A stretch of DNA of 58,011 nt from Girardia tigrina (lineage: Eukaryota): NCBI GenBank assembly GCA_001938485.1, contig MQRK01226581.1:1-58011 (forward strand). Reading direction: 5' to 3'. Under the pieces are notes generated by a model. The model was not told the DNA's origin, made no database searches, and saw only the letters and a list, made by a program, of their open reading frames with translations. Of this stretch, positions 1,117 to 58,011 are shown piece after piece; the stretch's first letter is position 1, and each line of letters opens with the position of its first letter. The position numbers were made by a program, and so were the translations under genes.

Positions 1117-2090
1117 TGTCGCTCTGACTGCAGAATGCATTAGGTTGTTCGAAAATGTAATTTTAATCAATAAAATATATAAAAAATCATAAAATCAATT
1201 AAATCAAAATTGTAGAAAGACTATTATACAACCCCCACAAATTTACAAAAATTATAAAAGCTTACAGTTTGTGTTGTGACTGTATTGATTTGATTATGAT
1301 ATTTTTCTGGATTTTTAATGAATTAAATGAAAAAGTAAAATTTTTACTGTGGTGTCAAAATTAATATTTAAGTGTCATTTATTAATATCAAAAATCCATT
1401 CGTTAATAGAAAACCTGGATTTTTATGCTGATTTTTTATTTTTGGAATCAAAATATTTTATGTGAATATTTATGAATTAATTTGTGATTATTTATGAATT
1501 AATTTGTGATTATTTATGAATTAATTTGTGATTATTTATTAATTAATTTGTGATTATTTATTAATTAATTTGTGATTATNNNNNNNNNNNNNNNNNNNNN
1601 NNNNNNNNNNNNNNNNNNNNNNNNNNNNNTGTCGCTCTGACTGCAGAATGCATTAGGTTGTTCGAAAATGTAATTTTAATCAATAAAATATATAAAAAAT
1701 CATAAAATCAATTAAATCAAAATTGTAGAAAGACTATTATACAACCCCACAAATTTACAAAAATTATAAAAGCTTACAGTTTGTGTTGTGACTGTAATGA
1801 TTTGATTATGATATTTTTCTGGATTGTTAATGAATTAAATGAAAAAGTAAAATTTTTACTGTGGTGTCAAAATTAATATTTAAGTGTCATTTATTAATAT
1901 CAAAAATCAATTCGTTTATAGAAAACCTGGATTTTTATGCTGTTTTTTTATTTTTGGAATCAAAATATTTTATGTGATTATTTATGAAATAATTTGTGAT
2001 TATTTATGAATTAATTTGTGATTATTTATTAATTAATCTGTGATTATTATTTAATTAATTTGTGATTATTTATGAATTAATTTGTGATTA
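1117..2090. repeat. ~0.5 kb near-identical tandem duplication (1117-1579 vs 1630-~2090) spanning an N gap
   Basis: TGTCGCTCTGACTGCAGAATGCATTAGG... recurs at 1117 and 1630 with scattered SNPs; each copy runs into the 22-bp satellite. May be a haplotype or assembly duplication. Confidence 0.8.
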
Positions 2091-3871
2091 TTTATGAATT
2101 AATTTGTGATTATTCATTAATTAATGTGTGATTATTTATTAATTAATTTGTGATTATTTATGAATTAATTTGTGATTATTTATGAATTAATTTGTGATTA
2201 TTAATGAATTAATTTTTGATTATTTATGAATTAATTTGTGATTATTTATGAATTAATTTNNNNNNNNNNNNNNNNNNNNNNNNNNNNNNNNNNNNNNNNN
2301 NNNNNNNNNNNNNNNNNNNNNNNNNNNNNNNNNNNNNNNNNNNNNNNNNNNNNNNNNNNNNNNNNNNNTGAATTAATTTGTGATTATTTATTAATTAATT
2401 TGTGATTATTTATTAATTAATTTGTGATTATTAATTAATTAATTTGTGATTATTTATGAATTAATTTGTGATTATTTATGAATTAATGTGTGATTATTTA
2501 TGAATTAATCTGTGATTATTATTTAATTAATTTGTGATTATTTATGAATTAATTTGTGATTATTTATGAATTAATTTGTGATTATTCATTAATTAATGTG
2601 TGATTATTTATTAATTAATTTNNNNNNNNNNNNNNNNNNNNNNNNNNNNNNNNNNNNNNNNNNNNNNNNNNAATTAATTTGTGATTATTTATGAATTAAT
2701 TTGTGATTATTTATGAATTAATTTGTGATTATTAATGAATTAATTTTTGATTATTTATGAATTAATTTGTGATTATTTATGAATTAATTTTTGATTATTT
2801 ATGAATTAATTTGTGATTATTTATTAATTAATTTGTGATTATTAATTAATTAATTTGAATATTTATTAATTAATTTGTGATTATTTATGAATTAATTTGT
2901 GATTATTTATTAATTAATTTGTGATCATTTATTAATTAATTTGTGATTATTTATGAATTAATTTGTGATTATTTATTAATTAATTTGTGATTATTTATGA
3001 ATTAATTTGTGATTATTTAGGAATTAATTTGTGATTATTTATGAATTAATTTGTGATTATTTATGAATTAATTTGTGATTATTAATTAATTAATTTGAAT
3101 ATTTATGAATTAATTTGTGATTATTTGTGAATTAATTTGTGATTATTTATGAATTAATTTGTGATTATTTATTAATTAATTTGTGATTATTAATTAATTA
3201 ATTTGAATATTTATTAATTAATTTGTGATTAGTTATGAATTAATTTGTGATTATTTATTAATTAATTTGTGATTATTTGTGAATTAATTTGTGATTATTA
3301 ATTAATTTGTGATTATTAATTAATTAATTTGTGATTATTTATGAATTAATTTGTGATTATTTATGAATTAATTTGTGATTATTTATGAATTAATTTGTGA
3401 TTATTTATGAATTNNNNNNNNNNNNNNNNNNNNNNNNNNNNNNNNNNNNNNNNNNNNNNNNNNATTTGTGATTATTTATGAATTAATTTGTGATTATTTA
3501 TGAATTAATTTGTGATTATTTATGAATTAATTTGTGATTATTTATGAATTAATTTGTGATTATTTATTAATTAATTTGTGATCATTTATTAATTAATTTG
3601 TGATTATTAATTAATTAATTTGTGATTATTTATGAATTAATTTGTGATTATTTATGAATTAATGTGTGATTATTTATGAATTAATTTGTGATTATTTATG
3701 AATTAATTTGTGATTATTTATGAATTAATTTGTGATTATTTGTGAATTAATTTGTGATTATTTATGAATTAATTTGTGATTATNNNNNNNNNNNNNNNNN
3801 NNNNNNNNNNNNNNNNNNNNNNNNNNNNNNNNNNNNNNNNNNNNNNNNNNNNATTTGTGATTATTTATGAA
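1468..3871. repeat. 22-bp AT-rich tandem satellite (consensus ATTTATGAATTAATTTGTGATT), interrupted by gaps and by the duplicated unique block at 1630-~1970
   Basis: Directly visible period of 22 (e.g. GTGATT at 3331 and 3353); variants such as TTATTAATT and TTAATTAATT; dozens of copies; several N gaps. Confidence 0.97.
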
Positions 3872-6439: not shown

Positions 6440-9330
6440 TAGATGAATTCCCATATTAAAAGTGTGCTTACAGAAAAGCTTCGGAATTACATGTTGAGTT
6501 CATCCAATTGGTAACTTCTTCCATTTACCAAATGCTAAAAGATTTTTGAATTGTTCGAAACTTGCTTTTTATATTTCACTTTTCATTTACTTTCTCCGTG
6601 ACACCACACGGTATTTAGTTCACTCGTCTTGGGCCTTTCTCATCACCAATGATATCTTTTGAAGATTTAGTCCATTGATAAGACTTTGTCCATAGATTCA
6701 AAAAAATAGTAGGTTCTGAGGCGAATAGTTTGGCATTAATCTTAGTTGGATTACGTTCAATGAATATAAAAAATTTAATTATTTGATTTACTAGTATTTA
6801 TTTTTATTTATTATCAAATATATATTTATAATTTCAAATAACAAAAATATATTTTTTAATATATTTATTCAATAATTTATTATTCAACATGTTTTTAATA
6901 CATTCAAACAAATATGCAGAGTCAGCGACATCTCTTTCACCAAATCACAGTTTCAAATTTCTTCATTCACTAATGTTGCTTTCACTGATATCACGAACTC
7001 TGCCTAACGCAAACTGTTATTAGTTCAAAATTTTTTGAAGTGTACCTAGATTGAAGATTATTAATTTTCCCCGTCTATATGGAGTACTTTGGTCCTAAAA
7101 TTAATTTAAAATTGTATAAACCTTTTACTGTTTTCTTTTGTATGTGATTTTAATCATTTAATTCGGGATTAAGTGAATTAAAAATTTTTTTGTATGTGAT
7201 TTTAATTTATGTGATCTGTAGTGTTTTTATTTACTTTATTTTTTTTATCACATATTTTACAAAGAAAACCGGTGATTTATCGGATTATTATGATCTAGCT
7301 AATTTATCGAGTGAAAATATCGAAAAAGACAAAAACATAACATAAAAACGATTTCGGTTTTATTATTTTATTTTATTTCAAACGATTTATTATTCAGTAT
7401 TATTTATTATTCGATTTATCAATCAATTTGCCAAAATTTGAAAATCAATTTGATATTTTTTTCGGCGTTCAAAATTTTATCGTTTTTTTAATTGAAGCCC
7501 AATGGAATTTAAATACGGAAATTTGATTTTCTCTTCGAATTTTGTTTCGGGTAATGTATTGAATGTGAATCGAGTGTCGCTTGGTGAGGATACCGCGAAG
7601 GAAAAGACTTTATTTTGGTGAAAGAAAAATAAATATCAAATTTAATGAAAATTCATGTTGTTTGAATATTTGAAAAAAATCTTGAAAACAGAACTTGATT
7701 ATTTACCGCGCAGAGATATTTCGCCTCAATTTATATGCTGTAAATGACATTAAATAAAGTTTATGATTAATGTGGTAATTTTTATTTATTTTTATTTCTC
7801 AAAATTGTAATAGCGATATTCCTGTTAAAAGTTGTTAATTTCGTTAAATATTTTTATTTCTTAGTAAAAAATAGACATTTGAAGATCAGTTCAAATCCCT
7901 ATTTTTTTTTCAAAGATAATAAAAAATTAAGACTTATATCCAATATTCTGTCTGCATAAATAATGTGTATGTAAAATTAATTTTTTTGATTTACTAGTTT
8001 TTTTCTGTTGTGAAATATGACTGAACGAAATAGGTATTGTCGTTATTGATAGTAGAACTGGGTGTCCCACTTTTCGTGTTTTTAGATGAATTCGTCTCTC
8101 CTGATATATTCTTATGGTATATATTTTAACGAATACAAAATACATTTATTCAAATTTATCATAATACATCTAAATCGATTTGTAAACACATCGATAAAAC
8201 ACGTATTTTATTAAATGTTTTTTGCTTTTCTAAAATAATAGTATTGTGGCTCGGCATTGTTTTTTATTGTGCCACCGTGTCTCTTAATAAAGGCCTGGAC
8301 GTCATCATCGATTTGGCCACCCAGCGATATTATTGTGTTGTGTTGATAGAATATATATTCGATAGAATATTGTTGATGGAAAAATTGAGAAATTCGATCG
8401 ATGGAGAGTCAAAATTCGTTGTGCGCATATATTTCAGCGCGTGGGTCAAGAAATGTTTTAATATATCGATTGATTGAGTGATGAATCGTTAATTTTCTGT
8501 TTTTGTTCTTGATTTGTCGTTTTGTTCCTAACGATCATTCGTTCTGGTTTTTCGTCTAATTCTATTTCCAATGTTTTGAACATCTCGAAATATGTCCTTT
8601 GTTCATTGAATTTGCGTAGTCCCCAGAAATAGTAGAGACAATGCAACACACATTCTTTTCGAAGCACTTGTAATATGTCGTCGTCGTCGTCATCATTGCA
8701 CTTTTAATTACTTTTAATTCTGTCTGCATAGATAATGAGTATATACAATTAAATTTTTTGATTTACTAGTTTTAATTTTATATTTATTATCAAATATATA
8801 TAATTTCAAATAACAAAAATATTTTTTTAATACATTTATTTAATAATTTATTATTCAACATGTTTTTTAACACTTATGCATTTTTTAATTCACTTTTTTG
8901 TTTTACTGAATTGATTAAAATTACTCAAAAAAATACAAATTATGCAACAAATTCAAAATTTTTCCATAAAAATTTTCAGTTCATAAAGAAAATGAATAAA
9001 GCAAAATTTAAAGGAATCGGAAGTAGATATTGGATTACGTTCAATGAATATAAAAAAAATATTTGATTTACATTATTTATTATCAAATATACATTTATAA
9101 TTTCAAAAAAGAAAAATATTTTTTTAATACATTTATGCAATAATTTAGTATTCAACATGTTTTTAACACATATTCAAACAAATAGGCAGAGTCCGCGATA
9201 TCTCTTTCATCAAATCACAGTTTCAAATGTCTTCATTCACTAATGTTGATTTCACTGATATCACGAACTCTGCCTAACGCAAACTGATATTCGATCAAAA
9301 TTTTTTGAAGATTATTAATCTTCCCCGTCT
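6440..9330. repeat. Mosaic dispersed repeat, copy 1 (homologous to 33538-35610)
   Basis: 6440-7110 matches 33538-34213 and 7918-9030 matches 34216-35484 at high identity; 9030-9330 re-copies 6746-7077. Contains decayed minus-strand ORFs of unknown function. Confidence 0.9.
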
Positions 9331-9646
9331 ATAAAAACATAAAATTTTTTATCGTCCTCCTCCAATTGTCCATGAGCAGGTCAGTGCACTTTTTGAAAAT
9401 ATCCATCCACTCGTGGTCAAAAATTGATTCAAATTTAATCCCAAATCCGAAATGAATCCCAAATTGATTGTATCGCTCGAACGCATTGTTGTTCAGGTTC
9501 TCGAGTGCGTCGATGCCCTGGGCAGCCCTAAACTCCGCCATGCACTGCTCCCGCTTGCCGAAGTTGTTGGCGCACTGGAACCACTCTCGCACGGCGTCCT
9601 GCGGAAGCATGGTTATCTTGTTGTCGTCACTTTCACAAACTTTCAA
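9329..9646 (-). pseudogene. GC-richer ORF of unknown function (105 aa), probably the 5' part of the decayed gene carried by the mosaic repeat
   Basis: Protein-like composition (MKVCESDD...EWFQCANN...DHEWMDIF...NWRRTIK). The frame continues past the stop as TGKINNLQKILIEYQFALGRVRDISE, into a block repeated three times. Confidence 0.4.
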
Positions 9647-9854
9647 TTTTAATGGCTTCTTAAAATAGCAAAGAAAAATTTCGCACAGGACAATATTTTT
9701 ATTTAATTGAAATTTAAAATCATAAGGGTGACTTAGTCACATTTAAATTCAAAAATTTCGCGCCAACCAAAATTCATTAATAATTCAATAATTTATTCCA
9801 ACAAAACTCGATTGATTAAAATTCACACATCATCACTTTTTCAAAATTTCGCCC

Positions 9855-12800
9855 TGTTACGGTCCAATATTGAGTAACCTAGACTTAGGCAATTCCATGC
9901 AGTCATTAACAATAAAATAATAAAGAAATAAGAGGAAAACATTAGTGTGTAATACATATTTAAATCACCAAAATTGTTCTCGAAGTTGTTCTCGATTTCC
10001 CGAGGACAGTGGAGCATTGTGGATGCCGCGTAGAGGCTAAAATAAAAAATAGAATAAAAACTCACCCGTTGAGAAAAATCAAACAACCGCCCCTTCCCCG
10101 AGAGAGTTTCGTTAGGCGCCTCAGCAATAGCAACTCGTCAGAGGATTGCGTGGCCCTGGAAAAAGTTATTCACCCTAAAAGCATCAAAGTTAATTCAAAA
10201 TGAACCCAAAAAATTAATAAAGTTACTTACAGGATTATCTAGTGGAGCTGAGAGGTCACCCAACCCCCTCCGTGTAGCCCCTCACAAGATGAGTCCCTGA
10301 GCAGAACTCGTGGGACGTCGACAGATACCTGGAAAAAGCTATTCACCCTGAAAAAGAAAAAAATAATCAAAATTCGACCAAAAAACAACAAAGTCCCTCA
10401 CCGAGATATCCAATGGAGCTACGGGGTCAACCGACCCTCCCACGAAAGATCTTCGCGCGGTCAATCCGTGGGCGAAACCCGCGAAGCCGTAGGACCTCCC
10501 TGAGAAAATTTATAGCCCCTGAAAGATCAAATAAATAATTAAGAAAAATAGAAAATTAATTAATTTTACCATGAGTCAACCCAGAATCCGAGAATAATCG
10601 TCAGCTGATGATTCCGTGTGAATCAACCGTAAATCAGCAGCAGGCATGCCTGAGAAATATGGAAGTGTGTAAAGGCACACGAGACTGGATCCTATAATAA
10701 AATAAAATTTTTATAAAATAATAAATAAAATAAAATAATAAAATAAAATTAAAATACCGACAAGCCCGACAAACCAGCATTGCAGAATTTTCAGACGACT
10801 GGTTGGCGGAACCTGGTTGGCCAAGAGAAGACAACAGGACAACCTAGATGAAATATAAAACAGAAATCATTTTACGACGAAGTCGCACAAAAATTTAAAA
10901 ACGAAACCGAATCCGCGCTTGCACGTTTTTCGACGATACAATTTACACGCAAATTCCGAGAAGAAATAACCGATCCGACGTCCAGTATACGGCCGAGCGA
11001 TAACCAATCCATACACTGCGAACGAGAATCCGTAGACGAATTACGAGAAGGCGACAACCGAAGCCGAGAGCCTAATTCCAGTAGAGCGCTTCAATCGACT
11101 GATGCACCGACGAGCGAAGATTACCGCAGACTCATTCACGACTGATCGACTAGCGATTTGCCCGTATCCTCCGGATCCCGTTGGACTTGTTTCTAATTGT
11201 AAATTTTGTTATTTCGCTGATGAATATTTATTACCAACCAATTTATTAAATTAAATAAACGTGTTTTACGATAATGGTTTTTCACTTTTAACGTAATTAA
11301 CTTGTGAAACCAAGTTCCGGCCGTCTAGCGCTTCGATCTAGGCGGGTTCCCTTCCCGTCGTCGCCGCCGTCCCATGAGATCCCGCGGAATTGTGTATGAG
11401 TCCAGCGATCCGTTAATGTCGACCTTGAATTTAAATCCGAGGGTCGCTTCGAAGATTTTAACTAATAAATTTAAACAAGCAAAGTTTCGAGGACGAAATT
11501 CTGTCGATTAACAATTTTTTTTATAATTGCGTTTTTAATAAGTTTTTTTTCTTCCTTAGATTTTCTTTTGCAGTTAAATATAATTCACTAAAGTTCTAAC
11601 GTTAACACCGCGATTTTCAACTTATTCCGTCAGTTTTATAATAAATTTATTAATCTTATAATTTTAATTTCGTAATGAATCAATTTTTCACAATTTACTT
11701 GTCAATTCATCAATTTACTTGTTAATTTTTACGAACCATTTTTATGGATCAAGCTTACTTATCAGTTTACTATTAATTTTACTTATCGATTTTACAAATT
11801 TTAATGAATTTATCAATCCTATAATTTAGTGAATGAATTTTATGAATGAATTTTTTTTACAATTTTATCTGTACGAATTTATCGATTTTTAATGAATTTT
11901 ATCATGAATCTATTTTACCATTTTGAGCTTAGGAATTTATCAATTTTACTTTATAAAGAATTTAATGATTACGACGAAATTACCAGTTTTGCCGAAAATT
12001 ACCATTTTCGAAAATTGCCGATACTTTTGTAACGAATCCTGAAAAGTTTACGAAATTATCAATTTTATAGAGTAGGAAATGGAGATTAGAGAGTTGTAAT
12101 GGATTGAACTGTTAATAAACGACTAGTGGGTTGAGAAGTGTAAATTTGAATGAACCAGTAACTGCAAGTAATTAGGTCCGTTGTTGATAAGTCCATATTA
12201 CCTTAAGATAAATCTGCCGTTGACATTAAATGATGACCCTTTGGCGTAATTAAGTAATCTTGAGGTGAATCTGTATGAATTGAACAAAGTACGATTGAGA
12301 GAGATGTGGTCGATGAAAACGACAATAAAGTCTAATAGTCGATACGAATTACTGTTGAGACGAATAACAAATATACACTACATAATGATATATACTACTT
12401 TCAGGAGGGATATACTGCATAAATATGTTTACGACAGTGCCACAAGTTTATTATCATGCACATCACAGTACCACAAGTCACATCACATTGTCGCAAGTTC
12501 GACGCATAACATCAGCGTCGAAGTTATAGACTGATACAACAGTGCAACAAGTTTTACGATACACATTTACCATAGAGGTGATAAAATTGTTGAGGAACGT
12601 AATATATAAATCATCCCCGAGCGACACTAATCTAGGTGGGTCCATAGCCTATCCAGTCTTTAACCGAACCCGAAGGCTCCTTGAGCTTGGCACTGGTAGG
12701 CAGATGTCAGGCAAGATAGGAGGCGTCCGACTCTACTATACAACCGCAGCGTTTAAAATGGGAAACAGTTTAACGTTTAAAACCGAAATAAAATTATAAT

Positions 12801-12877
12801 GGGTTGTGGTTGACCCTTAACAATCACTGGGGGCTCATGAGCTTTTAAAAATGTTTGCACTCGAGAGGGTCGTGACA
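9855..12877. mobile_element. Element A: 3.0-kb solo-LTR-like element with 4-bp TSD
   Basis: Starts TGTTACGGTCC and ends GGGTCGTGACA (imperfect 11-bp inverted ends); flanked by GCCC at 9851-9854 and 12878-12881; no coding capacity; homologous to 18365-21021 and 52110-54910. Confidence 0.85.
9950..11450 (-). ncRNA. Predicted multi-exon non-coding transcript in element A
   Basis: Minus-strand GT-AG introns at 10037-10065, 10175-10230, 10348-10401, 10519-10569 and 10692-10757. Exons 10402-10518 (117 nt), 10231-10347 (117 nt) and 10066-10174 (109 nt) are paralogous repeats. Structure is conserved in element B. Confidence 0.65.
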
Positions 12878-15800
12878 GCCCAATGCACAAACAAAAATTG
12901 TTGTTACTTAAAAATAAATACTTACAAATAGAAAAAACTTGAATTACACCTAAAAATTTTATTACAATAAATTTTATTTTTAAAAATTAAAAATCTTCTT
13001 TTCTGACTCCGAACATCTTGAAAATATGCACAAAAATACTTTTCACATCTATTTTATGATTCAAAAATAATTTCAAATTAGGCCATTCTAATTTAGATTT
13101 TGGAATATTAAAATAAAACGAAAAATTTTAAATTTAATGATTATACGATTTTTAAACCATGTTTTAATTATTGTACATCTCATGATCTGATTAACCATCC
13201 AGAACAAAGAACAAATAATAAAGAAATATAGATTTTTGAATATTTAAACAAAATGAAAATTTATAATCATTATTTATAACTTTTTTTTCTATATAAATCT
13301 TATCTTTTTTCTATATAAATATTTATAAATATTGAGGGTGTAATAAAAAAATGTGAGTTACCGTTACAAATTTACTTTTTGTCCTAATCGTTTGATAATA
13401 ATTATCGATAGTTAAAGTTTTAGGAAATTGTGGATCTCATCCTGTAGCACCATCAATATATGTAGAGAAGTGAGTATACCATTATAAGTTTCTTCACCAG
13501 GAAAAGTTGCTGTAAATATACTTAACACTCATCGTACATCATCTGAAACACAAATTCCTAGGCAGCTAACGGTTTTAATTTTAACCTGATTTCAATGTCA
13601 GTCTCAAACATATTTTTAACCCAACACTTCCAATTTTTCTCACGAGGCTCTTTCTTTTTTTAAACATGGGAAATTCAAATGTGGTAAAAATGTCGTTGAA
13701 AATAAATTCTTCAGATTTCTTACTTTTTTAATTTTTAAATTGTAATCGAATTAAATCGAGCGGACCAGAGCTGCCGCCGCATTATTCAGCGACAACCCAC
13801 TTGGACGCATCGAGTGGACCACCGAGCAATGCGACGCCGCCAACAGAACCAACACACTTCGGCAAGCCGTTGTGGAACGTTTGCAGCGCCGACACGCGCC
13901 CGCGTATCGACCGTTGGACACTGGAACAGACCGATCATGTCCACCAGCGACAATTTCCCGCACAATTAAGAGGTGCTGGTTGCCGCTACTCGGTTCGGCA
14001 GTACTACATAATTTACCACAACATAATCTTACTTTCGTGATATTTTCTTATAGTTCTTTTCATTAAATGTTCACGATTTCTTACCTGCTTTTCCAAACAT
14101 TTATTTGATGTTAAAGTAGTTGCAATGGATTTCTAAAATAAATATTTTATTTATAGATTTTTAAAAAAAATTTTTAATTAATTCATAATTCTTTTGTAAA
14201 GAAAAAAAATTATCGATTATTTTGATATAAAAACAATTTTTTTAACATTTCCAAAGTTGCATTGGATTAAAAATATCAATGACATAAATACCCCTTTGAG
14301 AAAAGTGATGATTATCTCTTGTGCATTGTATGTTTTCGATTGAAGATATTGCTCGAACACGAACTCAAATTGTGGTTGTACACAACATACCATAATAACT
14401 TAATCAATATATTGTAATTTTATCATATGGATCAAAAATAACCGCTACCACCTTTGTTAGCTTCTTTTGTTTTATGAAACAAATATTTTTTTAAACTAAA
14501 ACATTAAAATATGTTTTAAAGTAAACGCAAATATTTTCAGGTGAAACTAAGTTAAACATCAAACGTAAAACGAATTATAATTATAAATGGTAAAATTACA
14601 ATTTACAAAATAATAATTTCTAGAAATATCTTACAGCGCAAATAAAGATTTTTTTTGAAAAATTCTCTACAACAAATTTTATATTTTGAGACATTAAAAA
14701 TTACGATTAAGGAATCGTAAATAAACTATTGTATAAATCATATGTAATTATTCAAACCGTAAAGGGCTTTAATCCGTCTTCTCAGGCAAATGTTAAAGTT
14801 TCAAATAATTTAATCAATCAGTTGATTTAAAAGTCACCAAACATGTTCCATCTCGATTGAATTCAAAAAGAAGAATCTTTATTTCACCACAGATCAAATT
14901 ACTACAACATTCAAGATTTTATCACTGATAATCAATAGATCGACAAGTCTTCGAAAATTCGATCCGACGCTGCATCAAATCATTTTATATAATTCTTCAA
15001 ATAATATGTACCGATCCCAGATTGATCGCAAATGGAAATTTCTGGGTATTTTGAAAAATAGAATGACATTAAAAAAATTTGACTTTAAAAAACAGTTTTG
15101 TCACGTAGACAATTCAAAAACTCGTACCCTGCTCAATTGATGCAATAAAACAAACTTATTTTTAATTTAAAATTTACAATTATTCCCCTTCTGGAACAAT
15201 TATTATATTCGATTAAGAATAAATGAACCTTTAGCGAGGTTGTGCAGAGTGAGTGGTATGTTGCTACTGAACATCTTTTATTATGATCTGTATATTTTAA
15301 GTATTGAAATATCATTTTAACTATGAAATGCCTATTTCTTGTATCTAGGACTGGGTCAACTTGCTTAAACAATTAAGTCATTGCGGTCATTAGTTTTACT
15401 TAATTATTTTTCATAATTAAAATAACAAATAAATAATGTACAATAATTTGGGTACAAAGAAGAATTTGTATCACAGGATAGGGGGAAGTTAAATCAAGAG
15501 TTGTGAAAATCAGCCTCAAGGTCACCGATTGGATCAGGGCGTTCATGTGCTCGGTTGTCGATGCCGGATTCTGTAAAGCGAGGGGGAGAGGATTCTCAGT
15601 GGTACTAAAATCTTACTGGTTAGGGATGGTGTTCGTATAATAATACAATGGCCATCATTATGCCCGTCAGCGGCACTTTTGATATTGAAAACATCAAATT
15701 TAAATGCGGCGCAAATTTTATTGATTTAAATAATCGATAATCGAATGGTGTTTCCTTATTGAGTGATCCATGAAATCGCTAATAGCGGCTCATACGCGAT

Positions 15801-33537: not shown

Positions 33538-35610
33538 GATGAATTCCCATACCAAGTGTGCTTACAGATGTAATCCTTCAGAAAAGCTTCGGAATTACAT
33601 GTTGAGTTCATCCAATTGGTAACTTCTTCCATTTACCAAATGCTAAAAGATTTTTGAATTGTTCGAAACCTGCTTTTTATATTTCACTTTTCATTTACTT
33701 TCTACGTGACACCACACGGTATTTAGTACACTCGTCTTGGGCCTTTATCATCACCAATGATATCTTTTGAAGATTTAACCCATTGATAAGACTTCAAACA
33801 TAGTTTTAAAAAGATAGTAGGTTTTGAGGCGAATAGTTTGGCATTAATCTTAGTTGGATTACGTTCAATGAATATAAAAAATTTAATTATTTGATTTACT
33901 AGTTTTCATTTTTATTTATTATCAAATATATATTTATAATTTCAAATAACAAAAATATATTTTTTAACACATTTATTCAATAATTTATTATTCAACACTA
34001 ACATATTCAAACAAATAGGCAGAGTCAGCGATATCTCTTTCACCAAATCACAGTTTCAAATGTCTTCATTCACTAATGTTGCTTTCACTGATATCGCGAA
34101 CTCTGCCTAACGCAAACTGTTATTCGTTCAAAATTTTTTGAGGTGTACCTAGATTGAAGATTATTAATCTTCCCCGTCTATATGGAGTACTTTGGTCCTA
34201 AAATTAATTTAAAACAATAAAAATTAAGATTATTATCCAATATTTTGTCTGCATAAATAATGTGTATGTAAAATTAAATTTTTTGATTTACTAGTTTTTT
34301 CTGTTGTGAAATATGACCGAACGAAATAGGTATTGTCGTTTTTGATAGGAGAACTGGGTATCCCACTTTTCGTGTTTTTTGATGAATTCGTCTCCTGGTA
34401 TATTCTTATAGTATATATTTTAACGAATACAAAATACATTTATTCAAATTTATCATAATACATCTAAATCGATTTGTAAACACATCGATAAAACACGTAT
34501 ATTATTAAATGTTTTTTGCTTTTCCAAAATAATAGTATTGTGGCTCGGCATTGTTTTTGATGAATTCGTCTCCTGGTATATTCTTATAGTATATATTTTA
34601 ACGAATACAAAATACATTTATTCAAATTTATCATAATACATCTAAATCGATTTGTAAACACATCGATAAAACACGTATATTATTAAATGTTTTTTGCTTT
34701 TCCAAAATAATAGTATTGTGGCTCGGCATTGTTTTTTATTGTGCCACCGTGTCTCTTAATAAAGGCCTGGGCGTAATCATCGATTTGGCCACCCAGCGAT
34801 ATTATTGTGCTGTGTTGATCTCATATTCGAATATTGTTGATGGAAAAATTGAGAAATTCGATCGATGAAGAGTCGAAATTCGTTGTGCGCATATATTTCA
34901 GCGCGTGGGTCAAGAAATATTTTAATATATCGATTGATGGAGTGTTGGAATCGTTAATTTTCTGTTTTTGTTCTTGATTTGTCGTTTTGTTCCTAACGAT
35001 CATTCGTTTTGGTTTTTCGTCTAATTCTGTTTCCAATGTTTTGAACATCTCGAAGTATGTCCTTTGTTCATTGAATTTGTGTAGTCCCCAGAAATAGTAG
35101 AGACAATGCAACATATTATTTTCGAAGCACTTGTAATATGTCTTCTTTATTCGTCGTCATCATTGCACATATTATTGCTTTTAATTCTGTCTGCGTAGAT
35201 AATGGGTATATAAAATAAAATGTTTTGATTTACTAGTTTTAATTTTATATTTATTATCAAATATATATTTATAATTTCAAATAACAAAAATATTTTTTAA
35301 TACATTTATTCTATAATTTATTATTCAACATGTTTTTTAACACATGCATATTTTTTGTTTTACTGAATTGATTAACATTACTCAAAAAAATACAAATTAT
35401 GGAACAAATTCAAAATTTTTCCATAAAAATCATCAGTTCATAAAGAAAATGGATAAACCAAAATTTAAAGGAATTGGAAGTAGAGGTCACTGAGGCACAC
35501 CAATCGCTCCAATTTCACCCTCATTCAACGAAAAATAATAAAAAATTAAGACTTATATCCAATATTCTGTCTGTATAAAGGATGGAAATATAAAATTTTT
35601 TGATTTACTA
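33538..35610. repeat. Mosaic dispersed repeat, copy 2, with an internal ~180-bp tandem duplication (~34375-34735)
   Basis: Direct similarity to 6440-7110 and 7918-9030; shared decayed ORFs (e.g. LHCLYYFWGL.KFNEQRTYFEMFK). Confidence 0.9.
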
Positions 35611-36925
35611 TTTTACTGATAAATTAGTTATTTATTTACTATCTCCTATTTTATATTTTTTACGGAATTAAATTAAGGGATTAAGTTTTTTTATTTATTA
35701 TTTGGTTATTTAATTATTAAACCATTCATACTTTTTTACTATTCAATTAAGTTTTTTACTGATCAATTTATTATTTTTTACTGACATTAATATTTTTACT
35801 GATCAATAGATTATTTTTTACTTACCTATTAATATTCAGTCAATTTAATTTGTAGTTTACTGACCATTTTATTGCATTTATTTCCCTATTAAATCATAGC
35901 TAAAAACAAGTACAAATCTCTGCAAACAAAAAATATCACATAATTCGCTGCAATAATTTGAATAATACTTTTTCATAGAAGTCACTTGATTAAAGAGAGA
36001 CAAAACATAATCTATGAATACTGTTTCGAATCACTTCATTTGAATTATGGATACTTGACTGATCACTTTTTCTCTACCAATACTGTTCATATATTTATAT
36101 TTGATAAATTTAAATAAATTATAATTTGTAAGATGCATAAAAATATATACTTTATAATTTTTTAAAAGATTATATAAAGTTGCACAAATGATATACATGT
36201 ATAGGTAAATATTTACTTTTAGCTGTTATTTTTTAATGTATAGTTACAATAACTGAAAGAAAAAATAATTCAGTTTAAGGTAAATCAAAATAAGAAATAA
36301 ATATATATTATAATAAACTTTGTATTAAAATTATACCTTTATACATAGCGATGTAATATGAATTTTTTTTACATGTCCTATGTAAAAGTATATACAATTG
36401 TAACATTTTCGTTCATATTTTAATTTCGTTATAAGTGCATATTTTGTTTAAAATTAAAACCAAAAAGAATCAAAGTGTATTTGCATAGCTAAATTTAATT
36501 TATTAATTTGCCCCTTAACAAGTGTTTGAGATTCAAATAATTTGACTATTAGAATTTAAACATTTAAAAATTAATTTTTAATTACAATCAAAAACAAAAT
36601 TATGAAAAAAGAAAAATTAAGAATTGAAAATTTTCTCGAAAATGGACTTTCGTTTGACTGAATCATTTGATAGAAACGTGATGGATCAATATTGGCTATT
36701 TTTTTGAACTTTGTAATTTTCGTGTGAATTGTTTATATAATTTTTTTGATTATTCGGTGATCAATTTGAAATAACAGTTTGTTAAACAAATTTTGGATTC
36801 GAAAATTAGGTTATTCATAAATCTTTTGGCAAAAATTTTGATCTGAACGAATTTAAGTTCACTTTACGTTTTGGTTGTGATTTCGGAAATTCGGATAAAA
36901 TCTTAGTGATAAAAATAAATAAAAA

Positions 36926-37438
36926 ATGATCGAAAGTGATCATAACGTCGAAATGAGGACGAAAGAAATTCCGAGAGAAATAAATGTCGAAGTTGTTAAA
37001 GAAAAAACGAGCACAGTTAAATGCGAATATTTCGAAAATCATATAGTTTTGTTTCTCCAACATTTCGGTTCTGCATATGCTCCGATTCGAATTTTGAAAG
37101 AGAATGTTATCAATAACGGATTTCTCGATAGAAATGTCCTTTCGATTTCTTTTATTTATGAAGACGAAATAGATAGCGGTTTATTAAATTTTAATAAATA
37201 TCAATTACGGATTCATATTTATCAACTAAACGAAACTGATGAAATTTACGAGAAGGAATTTGATCATGATGGTGAAAGCGTAATCGCAGTCGATAACTGG
37301 ATATTACCGTTCCCGGCTTTTGAAAATCTATTGAACTCTCTTGTCTATTCCAACAACATCAAAACAATTTTAAATACAATATGGGCCCAGCAATTCATCC
37401 ACAAAATTTCCCTGCGCAACCCTGCTACCTCCATCTGA
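36926..37438 (+). pseudogene. TRIP13: Truncated TRIP13/PCH2 (pachytene checkpoint AAA+ ATPase) N-terminal fragment
   Basis: INVEV...ST...FLDRNVLSIS...IHIYQLNE...ESVIAVDNWILPFPAFENLLNSLVY...K matches the TRIP13 N-domain (VHVEV..., FLTRNVQSVS, LHIFQLNE, AANHWVLPAAEFHGLWDSLVY). Similarity stops at ~37365, before the Walker A motif. Confidence 0.85.
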
Positions 37439-48770: not shown

Positions 48771-50854
48771 ACTTTATTTAGTTTAATTTAAAATTTTAAG
48801 CTTTGAAACGTCTTTACTTTGTCTATTTCGAATGTTTATCAATGGATTGTTGTGTCGTATTAATAATGATTCATAGAACTGCTACTCAAAGTGTGAATCT
48901 AAACCCCTCTGTGAAACAGAAAACTCATCCTTTAAAATGGAAGAGATTCTATTTTTACTGTGTAACTAATGATCAAGAACCTTACACGATCGATTTGATT
49001 GTGAAAGCTCACTATACCGGGTTTTAAAATGGCGATTGTCTCTAATGTACGAGTTTTTACACCCGTGACAATCAAATTTTTAAACCAGATTATCCTTTAA
49101 TCCACAAATCATTTTTGATTTATTCGAGAGGAAGCATCGAACTTTGGGTGTAAAGTATTTGCAAGAATATAAGTAAAGTCAAATTAGTTTCAATTACATT
49201 TTTTTCAATTGTTTTGTTTTTGGTTCTTTGAATATATTTTATTTATTGCATGTTTTTCTTTTGTAATGGATAATTGATAGTTCAGTTCAAAATAGGATGG
49301 ACTGTTGGTCCGCACAAGAACAGGATATGAAAGCTTATGAAAGATAAGGACCACACAAAAAAATTTCCTCATATGAAACATACACACCACAAAAATGATA
49401 CTGTTAAAGAGATATTACAATAGGAGACTAGAAGTCCTTAGCGGAAACAAAAAAATTACGCTCTTATTTCTTGACTATCCAATTAAGAGAAATCTAAACA
49501 CAAAATTACGACTCCTCTGCAAAAATTTCTTAAGTGAAATTCAAACCAGACTTACAATTTAAAAGTAACCTAGTATATTGTTCTTTTTAAAGTTCTTTTT
49601 GAGTTTGACAATTATTTTACTAACTAGTTTCTTGTTACAGGTATATTTTAATAAATAGCCATTTTTTATCCTTTGCTATTGCTATTGTAGAATATAATAT
49701 TTATTAAGTAATATGATTTTATTGACTTCTGATAAAAAATATAAAAAAATAACATAAACTATTTTAAATTTGGAGAATTAATAAATATTTTAGTTGAGTT
49801 TTGACAAAGCCTCAATCTTTTAAGGATATATTCCACAACTTTAGTTATAAGTATTGGTTCTTTAATTTTGCAATAACAATAAAAAATTACAATTTCGATT
49901 TGTAACGAAATTATTAGTAATTAATTTATTAGTTTATTACAGAAATTCGTGATAATTTTGATAATTCAATGATGATTGATAAATCAGTTAATAATTCTAG
50001 GAATTATTTTAAGAAAAAATGTCTTTAATATTCCTTTTTAAGAAATTAAGATAATTATTATTAAACAAATAAAATTAATTAACACGAAAGTGAAACGACA
50101 ACATACATTAAATTTATTTTGAAAGTGGTCTAAATCCATATATACTTAAATTAAGATATTTAAGGTTGTGTTTTCGAAAAATTGTTTCGAAAGTAATCGT
50201 ATCACCATTTTAAAAATTTTATAATTAACGTTTGAATCCGTTAATAATTCCTTTATAGAATTAATTAGACTGCGTTATTTATAGTATCGCTTGTTTGTTA
50301 ATTATCAGATATCATATTGCACATACCGATAAGAAGAAACGCGAAGAACTTTTCCAAATTAAATTATTCTAAATATTTAAGTCACTTAGAATAAATAATT
50401 TGGAGGAAACACACTTTATTTGTATCACACTTAACACGGAATAATTTTATTATCTGATTGAAAAATTCTCAATTGGAACATTCGAAACATTTAGTGGTGC
50501 GAGAACTAGATACGCTAATGATTGGAAGATAGTCTTCTTGGACTTTATAGAAAAGTCCCACAAATGGTCCTTGTGGCTATCATAAAATTGATGATAGTCA
50601 CCACTACTTGCATTTGGACATACTGGACAAATGTAGAACTCACATGTCTTAAGCGCACATCCATAGTAACGCTGCATTGTATCATGACAAATTTGTGGAT
50701 TGTGAACATTTGTCATGCAGCATCTATATAATGAACATTGTTGAATTTTCGTGTTGAAAATTGATAAATAAATTTTAATTATTATATATATTAAAAAAAG
50801 GGAAAAAAATTATAGAATTAAATTTTGTTAGATTATAGTATATATATATATATA

Positions 50855-51159
50855 CAGGGTGTCCCAAAAATATGTATAAACATTAAAAATTTAATTTTAT
50901 TGATTAAAAAAGTAAAAATAAGTATGATAGGGACTGAATCTACAAAAAACCTATTTATGTTAAAAAAACTATTTATATTAAATATAATGAAAGTTAAANN
51001 NNNNNNNNNNNNNNNNNNNNNNNNNNNNNNNNNNNNNNNNNNNNNNNNACCTATTTATGTTAAAAAAACTATTTATATTAAATATAATGAAAGTTAAACA
51101 TAAATAAAATTCAATAAAATTAAATTTTTAATGTGTATACATATTTTTGGGACACCCTG
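50855..51159. mobile_element. Tc1/mariner-type MITE (CAGGGTG ends) in a TA run
   Basis: ~50-bp TIRs CAGGGTGTCCCAAAAATATGTATA.ACATTAAAAATTTAATTTTATTGA; TA flanks; internal gap. Confidence 0.9.
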
Positions 51160-51194
51160 TATATATACATATTGAAAATTTGTTTGAATGGAGT

Positions 51195-51207: not shown

Positions 51208-51309
51208 GTGTTGTTGATTCAATAAATATAGATTTTTGCCGACGCGGTTTTGAGTTTTGAATATCTTTTCGGAAATTCTTGTTTCATTTTGTTGGAGAAA
51301 AGGAGAAAA

Positions 51310-52109
51310 ATGAGGATTGAAAGCGATTTGTTGAACATTGCAGTCACTCGGCAATTGAGTGTCGATGAGTGCAGGCGAATTTTCATATTCCTCTCGAACA
51401 CTTCTCACAATTGCACCATTGATTTGCTGTCACCGATGGACATCATCAAAATTTTATCGTTTCTAAATTTCTACGATGAAACGTTGTATGAAATATCTCG
51501 ATATCTCGCTCGAGTTTTATTGAAATATTTCCCGGATGAATTCGCCAATAATTCATCGACATTGTTGAAGTCATTGATTAGCGCCGACAACGTTCTGACG
51601 ATGATGATCTTCGATGAACTGACCCATAGCATTGATACGAACAAGGACAATTGTGAAGTCATGAAATGTACAACGGAATTTATCGAGGCCATCTTCGAAA
51701 TGGAATTTATCGACAATCAAATTTTATCGAGTTCTGCTCAGAAATTATTAATCGATTATTGTAAACAATGTCGAGAACTGTGTTCCGAGGCTTTTGGAAC
51801 CATTTTTAAACCGAAATTTTCGAAAATCTCATTGAATATGATCAATTTCTTTCGTTACATTGAGATGTGTTTGGATATTGGATCGAATACTTGTGATAGA
51901 CAGTTATAAGAGATGTAACTGAGAAATTGACAAATATAATTATCGGTGACGATCTATTGGCACATGTAAATGTACTGGAGACGATTGGAAGACTTGTCGA
52001 ACAACAGCTCGGGTACGAACTCATGACAAAGAGCGGTATTCTCTCCAAATTGAACTCGGGACTCCTCACTGTTTCTCAACAACCTCTTAACGTTGAAATT
52101 CTTCTACCT
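51310..52109 (+). pseudogene. PSMD5: PSMD5 (proteasome assembly chaperone S5b)-like 5' fragment, frameshifted near 51905 and truncated at element B
   Basis: HEAT/ARM-like helical ORF; GDDLLAHVNVLETIGRL...GYELMTKSGILSKL...QQPLNVEILLP resembles PSMD5 GEDVLVRATCIEMVTSL...GRQYLAQEGVIDQI...SDPFSSFYLP. Two frames (51250-51909, 51927-). Confidence 0.7.
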
Positions 52110-54910
52110 AAAAATTCGATAGCGATGAATTTCGATTTGATTGTGCAGAGAAATTTGCCGTATGACGTTCACGAATATCGACCGTCGACTGGCAATCAGA
52201 AACAAGAGGGATCATCCCTATGGGCCCAGATGCTCCCTTCAGTCGGACATTTCGAAAACATTTCGTAGGAATTTTCTCTTGAATCACCATAAAACATATT
52301 TTCTTTGAATATATTCTTTTTCGATTTGGTGAAAGGAACTAGATGTGTTTATGGTCATTGTAAAATTCTTCAAAACTAGTTCTGTACACTGCTTCACATG
52401 TTGGAGTTATAAAATATTCTTGTGATGAAAAATTGTATTTGTAGTATTGGGATAAATTTGAATTCTAAAAAAATTATTTATTTACGGAGCTGAAAAAAAC
52501 TCACCATTTTCTTAACAGAATTTTACTATCGGCCTGTACTAAATGAAATCATCAATCCGCTTCCTAGCCGTTCATTTTCATTACTAAAATATCATCAGTA
52601 TATTTACCATGGACTTATCAACAACAGGATTATAAGTTTATTCACATTTACTGGTTTATTTAAATCTGAACTTCTTCAATTTTATTTGTTAATTATTTAT
52701 TTATCGAACAATCATTTATCATAAATTATTTATCATTAATTATCTTTAATTATTTAGTCAAATCTACCTATTATGAAACTCATAAAACTTCCATTTGCAG
52801 CTCGTAAATCATAAAACCCATTACAAATTTCTAATTCTAATAATCATCCCTTATGAAATTGATAATTTCCTTATAAAATCATTTCATTATAAGATTAATA
52901 AATTCATTATAAAATTAACTTCTTAAAAGAAAATGATAAAATTTCAAATATTAATCGGCTGAGATTTCTCATTAAGATCCGCTTAGATTCAGGTTAAACT
53001 AAATCGAAACCGAACTCTCAATCCAAATTAACTCAATTAAGTCATAAAATTATGTAATTTCTAAAAATTTTAAATTCGCCGATTAAACATTGGTTAACTT
53101 CAAGAGTTACTAATTATAAGATTTCTATTCTATAATTCATACTGATAAAAGGTAATAAAGAAAATTTTATTTTATAATTCATATTGATAAAAATCAATTT
53201 AAAAATTCTATTTTGTATAAAACTGTTAATCAATAAAATTTAGTTCTCAGAAAATTTTATTTGTTTAAATTTGCTAATCTGGATTCCCAACGTGACACTC
53301 GGATTTGAATTGAAAGTCATTTTCGGCGGATCGCCGAAGCTCATATGAAACTCCGTGAAATCTCATGGGACGGCGGCGACGACTGGCAAGAAATCCGCCT
53401 AGACCGGGGCGCTAGACGACTGGGACTCGAATTTACAGGTTATTGATATTTAAAAGGGAGAATCATCATTATAGAATACATTTATTTAGTTAAATAAATT
53501 AAGCAATAAATAATAAATAACCAAAAAACAGAAAAATATTTACAGATAGGAGTTCAATGGGATCCGGAGAATGTCTCGATAAACGGTGTCTGTCGATTTA
53601 TTCGTCTTCTTCACTCGTCGACACGTCGGTTAGCCGAAATGTGTTTCTCGGTCGTTCTCTCGGTGCTGTAAATTCGTCAGTGGATTTTCCGCTCGGTGAG
53701 GCCATCGGTCTTCACTGATAATTTATCGTTCCTTTCGTTTGCGGTGTGCTCGTGGATCAACTGTTCTCACTCGAAGTTTCTTTGGTAACGTGATATCTCG
53801 ACGTAATGCGTAAACGTAAGTTCGGTTTTTATTTCAAAATGTGCGACTTAATTGACAAATGATTCTCATTTTATACCGTAGATGGGTTGTCCTATTGTCC
53901 CTTCTTGGCCAATTGCATGCTGCCAGCAAGAAGTCTGCAAAATTCTACGATGCTGGTTGGTCGGGCTTGTCCGTGTGTCTCCAAAAATTTTTGGTAATTT
54001 ATGATTTACTATAGAATTTTGTAATTGTCTTTTGACACATACGTTATTATTTTCAGCACGCACGCGCGGATTCACCGGTGATTCATACGGAATCATCACC
54101 TGATACCTATTTTTGGAGTCGCGGCTGACTCATGGTAATTTTAATTAATTCTCTATATTTCTTAATTAATTATTTGATCTTTCAGGGGTTATATCTTAGC
54201 TCGGGAAGGTGCTAGGGCCTTGTGGTTTTCGCCCCGAAATTGCACTTGCGATGTTCTTTCATGGGAGGGTCGGTTGACCCCATAGCTCTATTGGATACCC
54301 CGGTGAGGAACTTTGTTGTTTTCTGTCTGTTTTGTAATTAATTATTACTCTTTCAGGGTCAATAACTTCTTTCGGGGATCTGTTATGGTCTGACGAGTTC
54401 CACTCAGGGACTCGTCTTGTGAGGGACTATACGGAGAGGGTCGGTTGACCCCCCAACTCTACTGGGTATTCCGGTAAGAGGCTCCATCATTTTTCTATCC
54501 AATTATTAATTAATTTTTTATTCTTTCAGGGTTTATACTTTTGCTCCAGGTGATGTGACCAGCTGATGGTTTATCGTCACGAATTCACTTATCGATGTTC
54601 TATCTCGAGGGGAATATTCGATCGATTTCTTCTATCAGGTGCGTTTTTATTTAATGTCGTCTATTTGTTTTAGGTTATGTTTGTAGTTTCACTGCGACGT
54701 CCTCACTGCTCCGTCAGACTACGAAGGTGTCGAAAATGGTCTCGGGATTTATCCGGTTAAGACTTTTATCTGGTTATGATCTATCTGGTACCTTTTGAAT
54801 ATATGTATTATTTTTTTCTCTCTTTCTTTTTCCTCTGTTTGCTGAGTGCTGTGTTTTGCGCGTTTATGTCAATATGCTGGAAGATGTAAATAGGTTTTTC
54901 GACCGCAACA
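52110..54910. mobile_element. Element B: inverted, diverged copy of element A (left boundary uncertain)
   Basis: 53290-54750 aligns to the reverse complement of ~9960-11455; ends GACCGCAACA (A: GGACCGTAACA); weaker matches (CTATGG.CCCA) near 52220. Confidence 0.8.
53280..54800 (+). ncRNA. Predicted multi-exon non-coding transcript in element B
   Basis: GT-AG introns at 53439-53545, 53816-53881, 53994-54056, 54135-54185, 54303-54356, 54474-54529 and 54639-54686; exons 54186-54302 (117 nt), 54357-54473 (117 nt) and 54530-54638 (109 nt). Confidence 0.65.
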
Positions 54911-55329
54911 AATTATATATACTCCTTTATGCAAATCCATATTCTCTTGTATGCAAATCTATATTCCAATCACAAAAAAATTGATAACCTAATTTTATGA
55001 TAAATAAACAATTTACATCAATAACAAAAATTACAAGAAAAGTAACAATAAAAATAATATAAATACCAAAACATTAAATTAAAAATAATATTTAACATAA
55101 CTTTTAACAAGTAATTTTTAATTATATAAATTCTTTCGACAAGCTGCTTTTTCAAGTCAGTGCTTTGTATTGCTAAAGAAATTATGACATAAAGTCGTGT
55201 AATTATTTTCCGAGGCGAGAACCATATCCAAGCATTCCATAATTTGGTTGACTATTTTAGCAGTAATATATCTCCCCTTTATCATTGTAAAATAATTCTA
55301 AATAGGATTCGATTCAGTAAAATCTTTTT

Positions 55330-55520
55330 TCTTCCTTTTGGACCATAGCCGTTGGACCGTGGGTCCACCTAATTATACACAAGCCTTTGCCACATCTCTA
55401 TTTGAAGCCTCTCTTCTAAGACATTCCATGTTTAATTCCCTCCATTCTTTGAAGTCGTCTGTCGATTGTCTGTTTAGTCTTCCTCTTGGTCTTTCTTCTT
55501 CCACTCTTCAATCGACAGTT
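55330..55520 (-). mobile_element. RTE-clade LINE 3' tail
   Basis: Minus-strand RVEERPRGRLNRQSTDDFKEWRELNM...ASNRD matches the typical RTE ORF end (G.RPRGRP..RW.D...EW.....A.DR). Confidence 0.65.
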
Positions 55521-56499
55521 TTTGAAGAGGCTATATCGAGATATTTTATTTGGTTGAAAATCACAATTTAATGTTCGTCAAGTCGATCTCGATATTTGTT
55601 ATTGAAAATCACTATTTATTATTAAAAATTGAATTGCCATGTTGGAATCGAGATTTTAAAAAACAAATTGGAGACAGCTCCGTAGCCAGCTTTTTTTTCA
55701 TAGGGAGCTTTGTAATTTTTAAAATTCCTTGGGGGCTTCAAAACCAAGGTACATACAATTTTATAGAGAACTGTAAAAATAGTTATTCGCGTGCGTGAAC
55801 GGATAACTATTCTTACCAAAAAAAAGAATAATTTATCAAATTAACAACGTTTAACTGTCAACCAGGAACAGTGTGACGCAAATAAAGTAAAAATAAATAA
55901 AAAAATCACCTTAGATTATAACGAATTTATTAAAACCACCAAATCTTCCAAAACAATAGTTCAAAGCAATAAAATCACAGACGGAGATAATAAATCATAG
56001 AAGCAGATAAATATCAACGGTAAGTAATTATATACATTTTTTATATCAATTTATTTATTGATTTTTACAATCGATATTCCTATTGCTTTATTTTAATATT
56101 TATTTATTCACAGACCATGTCAATTCACACTCCGCCACGCACAACAACTCTACTTGACTCTATCCTGACCACGACATGAGCGACACTAAAAAAACGGCCA
56201 TCTCAACACTATTGTAAGTCTCCGATATGACAAGAAAAATCCAACCATCTATTAAATAAAAGCCAACAACAAGACTTGTTGTAAAAAAAACAAAAACACA
56301 TCGTGCTTAAACACGATAAAAAAATAACAAAATGATTACAAAAAACAAATTACTAACGAAGCACACACAATCACCGTACATAAAAAAATAAAATCGAATA
56401 AGTTCCGCATATCAAAAGTGAGGTATCACAACAACAAATCCTTCGCCATTTGACGCGACTGCATCTCCAATAGCTAAAATATCAATAGTGAAAGCATAT

Positions 56500-57539: not shown

Positions 57540-58011
57540 AACAACCACCGATTCAAGATATCATAGGCTATGTATTAAAAGACAAACAATTTGAATTGAA
57601 AAAGGCTACACATATTTACATTACTAACAATAAGAAAATGAATAATAATGAAGAAAAACATTAAAGGATTTAAGAAAAAAAGGACATTTATTACAAAATT
57701 TGATAAAGGTAACGGCCTCGTCATACATAACAAATCAGATTACATAAGTAAAATGAATGACATATTAGGAACAGATAAATTCAGTAAATTAAGTTTAAAA
57801 GAAAATAGTAAACCGTTACCGATGAAGAATGAAACCGAATTAAAGGATATATTAAAGTGTCTTCTTAAGAATAAAAGCATCGATCAGAAATTTGAAAAAT
57901 TGTTGACATGCCAGGGTTCACAACCAGCTAAACTGTATGGTCTAACTAAAATACATAAAACTGGTCATCCACTCCGCCCTGTTTTATCAATGATTGACAC
58001 GGTTCAGTACA
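57540..58011 (+). mobile_element. Penelope-like reverse transcriptase N-terminal region, running off the window
   Basis: ITKFDKGNGLVIHNKSDYISKM...PAKLYGLTKIHKTGHPLRPVLSMI carries the DKG and LYGLPKIHK..PLRP motifs of Penelope RTs. Confidence 0.92.

Follow-up and report, generated by a model that had tools for sequence, protein, structure and literature searches.

Tandem hairpin-bearing exons inside the LTR of a Burro-type Ty3/Gypsy element of Girardia tigrina: a candidate spliced antisense RNA

What are three consecutive, mutually similar exons that share a short hairpin, and what kind of RNA do they belong to? They were noticed in a 58,011-nt stretch of Girardia tigrina DNA (contig MQRK01226581.1, hereafter the window). 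A preliminary description made from the sequence alone regarded them as paralogues, amplified as whole exon+intron cassettes to multiply an RNA structural module such as a protein-binding, dimerisation or packaging site. All three exons (e, f and g; Table 1) are present in the sequence where this description had placed them, with AG and GT at their borders, and are separated by introns of 54 nt (e-f) and 56 nt (f-g). Their paralogy is borne out by comparison of many copies, with mean alignment z-scores against shuffles of 8.0 for e and f (57 copies), 4.2 for e and g (49 copies) and 3.8 for f and g (49 copies). Upstream exons c and d score 1.1 or less in the same test and are thus not paralogous to e-g. 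The anatomy of the unit as a whole is, in our judgement, very likely to be correct.

Table 1. Coordinates of the exon unit, its hairpins and the two LTR copies in the window
Feature	Position	Strand	Remarks
Putative first exon a, start approximate	53290..53438	+	GC-richer block before GT; no joint seen
Putative exon b	53547..53816	+	AG/GT ends in sequence; no joint listed
Exon c	53882..53993	+	donor at 53993 joined to exon-d letters in several X1 contigs
Exon d (78 nt here; 81 nt in 42/58 copies)	54057..54134	+	d-e joints in X1 and X3 on related copy
Repeat unit exon e (117 nt)	54186..54302	+	AG intact in 51/58, GT in 55/58 copies; e-f joints in X1
Conserved hairpin GGGTC-GGTT-GACCC, unit e	54267..54280	+	
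Repeat unit exon f (117 nt)	54357..54473	+	AG intact in 52/58, GT in 56/58 copies; exact GT..AG joint to g, 2 contigs
Second (middle) stem, unit f	54392..54416	+	partly kept in other subfamilies
Conserved hairpin, unit f	54438..54451	+	
Exon g (109 nt), degenerate third unit	54530..54638	+	perfect hairpin lost; joined to f and h at exact GT..AG sites
Last exon h, 3' end approximate	54687..54818	+	joint 54638>54687; X1 contig with 0 differences over 54685-54818
LTR copy B	52522..54910	- (element sense strand)	PBS-proximal (R-U5) end lost; element-sense 5' end 54910
Complete solo LTR copy A (3023 nt)	9855..12877	+ (element sense)	target-site duplication GCCC
Copy A unit e	10402..10518	-	hairpin 10424-10437
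Copy A unit f	10231..10347	-	wobble hairpin 10253-10266
Copy A unit g	10066..10174	-	
Inferred R-U5 block of copy A, start approximate	12630..12877	+	sense AATAAA at 12787

Splicing of the units, predicted earlier, is supported by assembled contigs whose joints fall at the predicted GT-AG sites. Contigs of sample X1 contain exact GT..AG joints 54473>54530 (f-g) and 54638>54687 (g-h), together with c-d and e-f joints that have a few diverged letters in between. The X1 contig that matches exon h without a difference terminates at 54818, and X1 contig cover begins near 53170, ahead of putative exon a. The exact joints come from this one sample of assembled contigs, whose RNA status is guessed and which carry no strand, start or level. 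The joints considered are the best-supported 15 of 19 and 15 of 33, with none among those listed for exons a and b. One contig was aligned from X4, none from X5 and one from X6, too few to bear on expression, and contig depth was not counted as evidence. A look-up of recorded RNA listed no holder. The unit is expressed in at least one likely-RNA sample. GT-side joints are found again in another LTR, that of locus L155, where the internal leader contains a CT..AC joint, i.e. splicing on the other (sense) strand.

Putative exon b varies between 251 and 382 nt among 29 copies. Exon h contains, near 54804, a conserved TATGTATT(AAA) motif that is likely to mark the poly(A) region; 58 copies yield 40 matches to it, 85-134 nt short of the LTR end. 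Exon d has an 8-bp hairpin of its own at 54076-54096, GGTGATTC-ATACG-GAATCATC. The intron between d and e (54135-54185) contains an inverted TAATTAATT/AATTAATTA pair and, with heterozygosity of 0.107, is more conserved than exons.

Exons e, f and g sit inside a solo LTR of about 3 kb with TGT...ACA ends. Homology of copy B to other copies begins at about 52522 and stops at a sharp common boundary, ...GACCGCAACA, at 54910. This boundary is matched in 18 other loci aligned there, beyond which the flanks are unrelated except for three duplicate pairs. The opposite LTR end is TGTCACGACC, located about 1.5-4 kb from the GACCGCAACA boundary across copies, and the termini form a short inverted repeat, TGTCACGACC...GACCGYAACA. 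Copy B is without one end; TG...CA ends and target-site duplication were established on two-ended copies, 11 of 15 of which, copy A included, are flanked by a 4-bp duplication (9/13 by pattern search and two that the pattern missed). The sequence RGGGTCGGWTGACCY occurs 1118 times in G000 and its reversed control once, because the unit belongs to a repeat family. DNA searches gave 1011 and 1118 candidates, 40 of each being scored, and the parent retrotransposon is present in hundreds of copies.

Several other features are found in the window. Just left of the truncated end of copy B, two overlapping intronless frames (51232-52268, plus strand), the second matching a proteasome non-ATPase 26S subunit (PF10508, 4e-07), look like a frameshifted host-gene copy. 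A frame with a TRIP13 N-terminal domain (PF23563, 9e-10) is located at 36923-37438 (plus strand), and a similar stretch (70%) lies beside another LTR copy, L013. An array of a 22-nt unit in more than 70 copies spans 1461-3783. Two copies of another AT-rich repeat of about 2.5 kb, 86-98% alike in blocks, occupy 6471-9400 and 33579-35650. There is also a Mariner-type transposase remnant (PF01359; 47990-48787, minus strand) and a small element with 62-nt inverted ends (50842-51172). A frame at 57642-58011 (plus strand) without Pfam match resembles, judged by motif, the start of a Penelope-type RT.

To orient the LTR, the position of the primer-binding site (PBS) is decisive. Of 258 matches, the first 30 loci were inspected; in 17 of them GGGTCGTGACA is followed by a PBS-like TGGGGGCTCRGYCGGGA-type tract, which we take to resemble a tRNA-Pro primer-binding site. 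Around 15 of 22 strict PBS-linked matches, 20 stretches were retrieved, and four of these 20 hold the exon block and the PBS within one LTR. A PBS at the GACCGYAACA end was rejected: 526 matches were found there against 117 for the control, and the recurrent continuation (10 of the first 30 loci) is another repeat. The PBS position implies that the element sense strand at copy B is the minus strand of the window, and therefore that the GT-AG exons are antisense to the element. A conserved block occupies no more than the final ~240-270 nt ahead of the PBS, and 20 of 39 LTR ends carry A(A/T)TAAA at a distance of 70-130 nt from the end. From this we infer that the block corresponds to R-U5, which would place the exons in U3. 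A DNA transposon with TGT..ACA ends and 4-bp duplication, a combination that we assume to be Ginger-like, was also considered; it is ruled out by the PBS and by the link to Gag-Env-Pol.

This link runs via collinearity of two contigs, one of which contains N gaps. Gap-free locus L155 comprises the LTR, the PBS and 6.4 kb of leader, and is collinear (82-89%) with L147/L148 up to about 350 nt before the Gag ORF. Pfam matches on the Gag contig are, in order, Ty3 capsid, CCHC, ubiquitin-like, viral fusion protein (Env, 1.8e-72), protease, dUTPase (weak, E 0.019) and RT. Env, protease, dUTPase and the start of RT share one open frame of 1269 aa, and upstream domains are in separate frames. Judged by this domain order, the element is a giant Ty3/Gypsy retrotransposon with Burro architecture: Burro elements are described with Gag-CCHC, a ubiquitin/SUMO-like domain, Env between Gag and Pol, and a dUTPase-like domain between protease and RT, and as having many captured domains (PMC6431247). 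Burro/GYPSM1, a group of giant planarian Gypsy elements, resembles the present element in Gag-CCHC, the ubiquitin-like domain, in-frame Env, the dUTPase-like domain and many copies, and differs in that the available text of PMC6431247 describes no gene inside its LTR. PMC11410931, in the text available, mentions Burro once. No BCL2, MATH or BIR match to Pfam was obtained in the five scanned frames of the Gag contig. The leader measures about 6.7 kb from PBS to Gag, is without a long open frame and contains a 45-nt intron on the element sense strand (L155:3977-4021).

Tandem duplication of whole exon+intron cassettes of about 170 bp, proposed earlier, is supported, with 1-4 cassettes per LTR. 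Among copies inspected, one unit is found in L240 and L247, two in L203 and L276, three in A and B, and four in L020, and later units in the array are frequently without the hairpin. Since subfamilies with a single unit exist, multiplication of the unit is not required. Unit length is 116, 117, 120, 121 or 122 nt depending on subfamily. Subfamilies that are only ~56% alike still share the splice sites and one hairpin motif. Because unit extraction snapped to the nearest AG/GT, splice-site counts were taken from unsnapped e and f copies (n=58).

The units had been described as an RNA structural module, and no frame with a coding signal was detected. Whichever of the six frames is read, 18-22 of the 24 subfamily representatives contain stops; codon positions are flat, and with a synonymous share of 0.23-0.32 no frame displays synonymous excess. 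Protein coding is thus rejected for all six frames. A decayed accessory protein gene, made of captured repeat-domain exons whose frame was lost, would account for exon lengths of 117 and 81 nt (multiples of three), for frame +1 with about one stop per exon, placed at a fixed position in 45 of 48 e units, and for the many captured domains of Burro elements (PMC6431247). The lack of synonymous excess in any frame, a stop common to subfamilies and unit lengths that shift the frame among subfamilies nevertheless make this origin very unlikely, and a present protein function is largely refuted.

What persists is the hairpin. As first described, a perfect GGGTC-GGTT-GACCC stem-loop occurs in three units (GGGTCGGTTGACCC at 54267, 54438 and, on the minus strand, 10437), and the fourth, unit f of copy A, carries the wobble variant GGGTT GGGT GACCT (10266, minus strand). 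A small correction concerns exon g, from which the perfect hairpin is gone. For structure analysis 292 distinct long units were collected, leaving out duplicate loci, N-containing units, short g-type units, weak profile matches and a further 10 named units regarded as chimeric, deletion-bearing or spurious. Among 24 subfamily representatives (56% mean identity), columns of the GGGTC-NGNT-GACC(C/T) core are 0.94 conserved versus 0.66, so that the short hairpin is the most conserved part of the unit. In its N-G-N-U loop, G is kept in 22/24 and U in 24/24 representatives, and the third position varies freely.

The stem has changed in ways that favour pairing in RNA of the spliced strand. Across 21 clusters, the four inner pairs show six cluster-wide changes to G-U on that strand and none to A-C; these six correspond to four independent changes in two lineages. 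Scattered-copy changes in the inner pairs gave 45 G-U and 26 A-C. The outer pair is GU in 132, GC in 99, AU in 16, AC in 8 and UU in 25 of the 292 units. All five pairs are intact in 134 of 213 units; the outer pair is U-U in one lineage, and in one cluster of seven a core pair is broken in register. The one-sidedness of the G-U changes favours pairing in the antisense RNA, and the hairpin, whose sequence is conserved, is probably paired. Covariation, suggested at the outset as the test of the structure, was not found: no pair is significant among 116 units (best E 6.65). An excess of pair-keeping changes on inner branches (81/56 vs 122/163) is similar in most slid controls, and changes from Watson-Crick pairs lean weakly to G-U (39 vs 26 A-C). 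A metagenome scan for the hairpin motif returned 0 matches, and Rfam has no match at gathering score over 52000-56000 or 9800-12950. A hammerhead ribozyme, considered on account of CTGACGA at 54390, was rejected, these letters being copy-specific and without Rfam match.

Absence of covariation would also be expected if the motif acted as DNA, namely as inverted hexamers GGGTCG-NN-TGACCY, which we take to resemble nuclear-receptor half-sites RGGTCA, in a U3 enhancer, the antisense RNA being a by-product of a two-way promoter. The location in U3, the invariant last loop T (24/24) next to a free third loop position, as fits two hexamers, and C/T at the outer position, in agreement with Y of TGACCY, are all compatible with such a site. 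However, a symmetric DNA site does not predict subfamily-wide changes that are one-sided (six G-U, no A-C), and two lineages (TGGTCC..TGGTCT and AGGTTG..TGACTT) lose half-site letters and keep RNA pairing. Moreover, the second loop G is kept in 22/24 representatives and long units keep their splice sites. We therefore consider the enhancer explanation unlikely.

Beyond the short hairpin, evidence for structure weakens. The second stem proposed at 54392-54416 is real, with 10 bp including one G-U, and its counterpart in copy A is shorter. Its conservation does not hold across the family, since 4-9 of 9 pairs are retained across 24 subfamily representatives. The named structure on 60 units beat letter shuffles that ignore kinship (1 of 500), a weak excess for the structure as a whole. 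Taken singly, the exons show no folding advantage over shuffles (nine folds, z between -1.49 and +1.45), and 35 single units have a mean fold z of -0.21. Consensus folding yields z -2.8 on 35 units (1 of 100 shuffles) and z -1.4 on 24 subfamily representatives (16 of 200 shuffles). A larger conserved fold of the whole unit is thus unsupported, its significance being lost on diverged subfamilies.

Strand preference of the folds bears on the packaging or dimerisation site of the preliminary description. Packaging and dimerisation signals of the retroviral type belong to the genomic strand and lie close to the PBS. In favour of a role in packaging, dimerisation or export of the sense (genomic) RNA, that RNA contains U3 at its 3' end, and the hairpin in its Watson-Crick form is able to fold on either strand. 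On the sense strand, however, the G-U-type changes would be A-C mismatches, and consensus folds are weaker there (-8.9 vs -16.5 and -7.0 vs -13.9 on the spliced strand). The splice joints are on the opposite strand, making the spliced RNA antisense to genomic RNA, and the motif lies at the LTR end far from the PBS, about 2 kb away. A role of this kind is thus extremely unlikely.

A different explanation is that splicing itself is selected, many short introns boosting the LTR promoter, export or escape from silencing; the motif would then be a signal for exonic splicing or for processing, and the RNA would have no further role. Introns are conserved as much as exons or more (heterozygosity 0.107-0.230 vs 0.215-0.241), and ATAWCT just past the acceptor (54191-54196 and 54362-54367) is conserved like the hairpin in 24 subfamily representatives, both of which would fit. 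This explanation leaves the G-U bias unaccounted for, and splicing also takes place at exons c, d, g and h, which lack this hairpin, so that we regard it as improbable.

On balance we favour the reading that the unit specifies a multi-exon, spliced, antisense non-coding RNA in a Burro-type LTR, whose motif is likely a protein-bound hairpin and which likely regulates its own element. With the exons in U3, promoter and poly(A) site would both be contained in the LTR, and solo LTRs could therefore still make the RNA. The genomic RNA that is copied would be the other strand, so the antisense introns would never be removed; being copied intact, they would allow tandem slips during copying to duplicate whole exon+intron cassettes. 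The antisense RNA, complementary to U3 and thus to the 3' end of genomic RNA, would restrain or time sense expression, in the manner reported for retroviral antisense RNAs, and the conserved motif would serve as a small RNA hairpin with fixed loop, bound by protein. Regulation of the own element's expression is likely under this scheme. Planarian LTR elements are described as being under PIWI control in the available text of PMC8532177. A complete, intron-rich non-coding gene borne by the LTR, with exon modules that are protein-binding hairpins multiplied in tandem, and whose RNA made by solo LTRs counters host silencing in trans, as decoy or as guide, appears to us a doubtful extension; if true, hundreds of solo LTRs would be active helpers and not dead ends.

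Related arrangements are known from other elements, here compared as far as the available parts of the cited sources go. Drosophila HeT-A also makes a spliced non-coding antisense RNA in a retroelement 3' non-coding end, with splice sites kept across fast-changing subfamilies (PMC3235214). It differs in being a non-LTR telomeric element, for which those parts describe no tandem exon cassette or repeated hairpin (PMC3235214). The unit described here, unlike HeT-A, is LTR-internal and is retained by solo LTRs. BLV AS1/AS2, HIV-1 Ast and HTLV-1 Hbz RNA are similarly LTR-started antisense RNAs with reported regulatory roles; those of BLV and HTLV-1 are spliced, the BLV forms are likely non-coding, and HIV-1 Ast differs in that it reportedly ends in env (PMC10186651). 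Compared with these retroviral RNAs, the present unit has at least six exons and a likely 3' end within the LTR, and carries 1-4 paralogous exon modules. The plant Gypsy elements Retand/Grande share an antisense unit and tandem repeats near the 3' end, but there the unit encodes a protein (TRP28) and lies outside the LTR, in the interval from pol to the 3' LTR (PMC11963269). Burro LTRs with exons were not described in any paper retrieved by our literature search; such a description may exist in the original Burro paper, in its supplements or in Repbase, which lay outside that search.

The unit is a retroelement antisense RNA of new form, with tandem exon modules inside an LTR. In the usual view an LTR is a promoter block without introns and a solo LTR a leftover, whereas here an LTR contains a non-coding antisense unit of six to eight exons. 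This organization may represent a route for a retroelement to keep and multiply introns, on a strand that is never spliced before copying. Spliced LTR transcripts of this kind could be mistaken for host lncRNA genes, and the many copies form an extensive natural collection in which the role of retroelement antisense RNAs can be studied.
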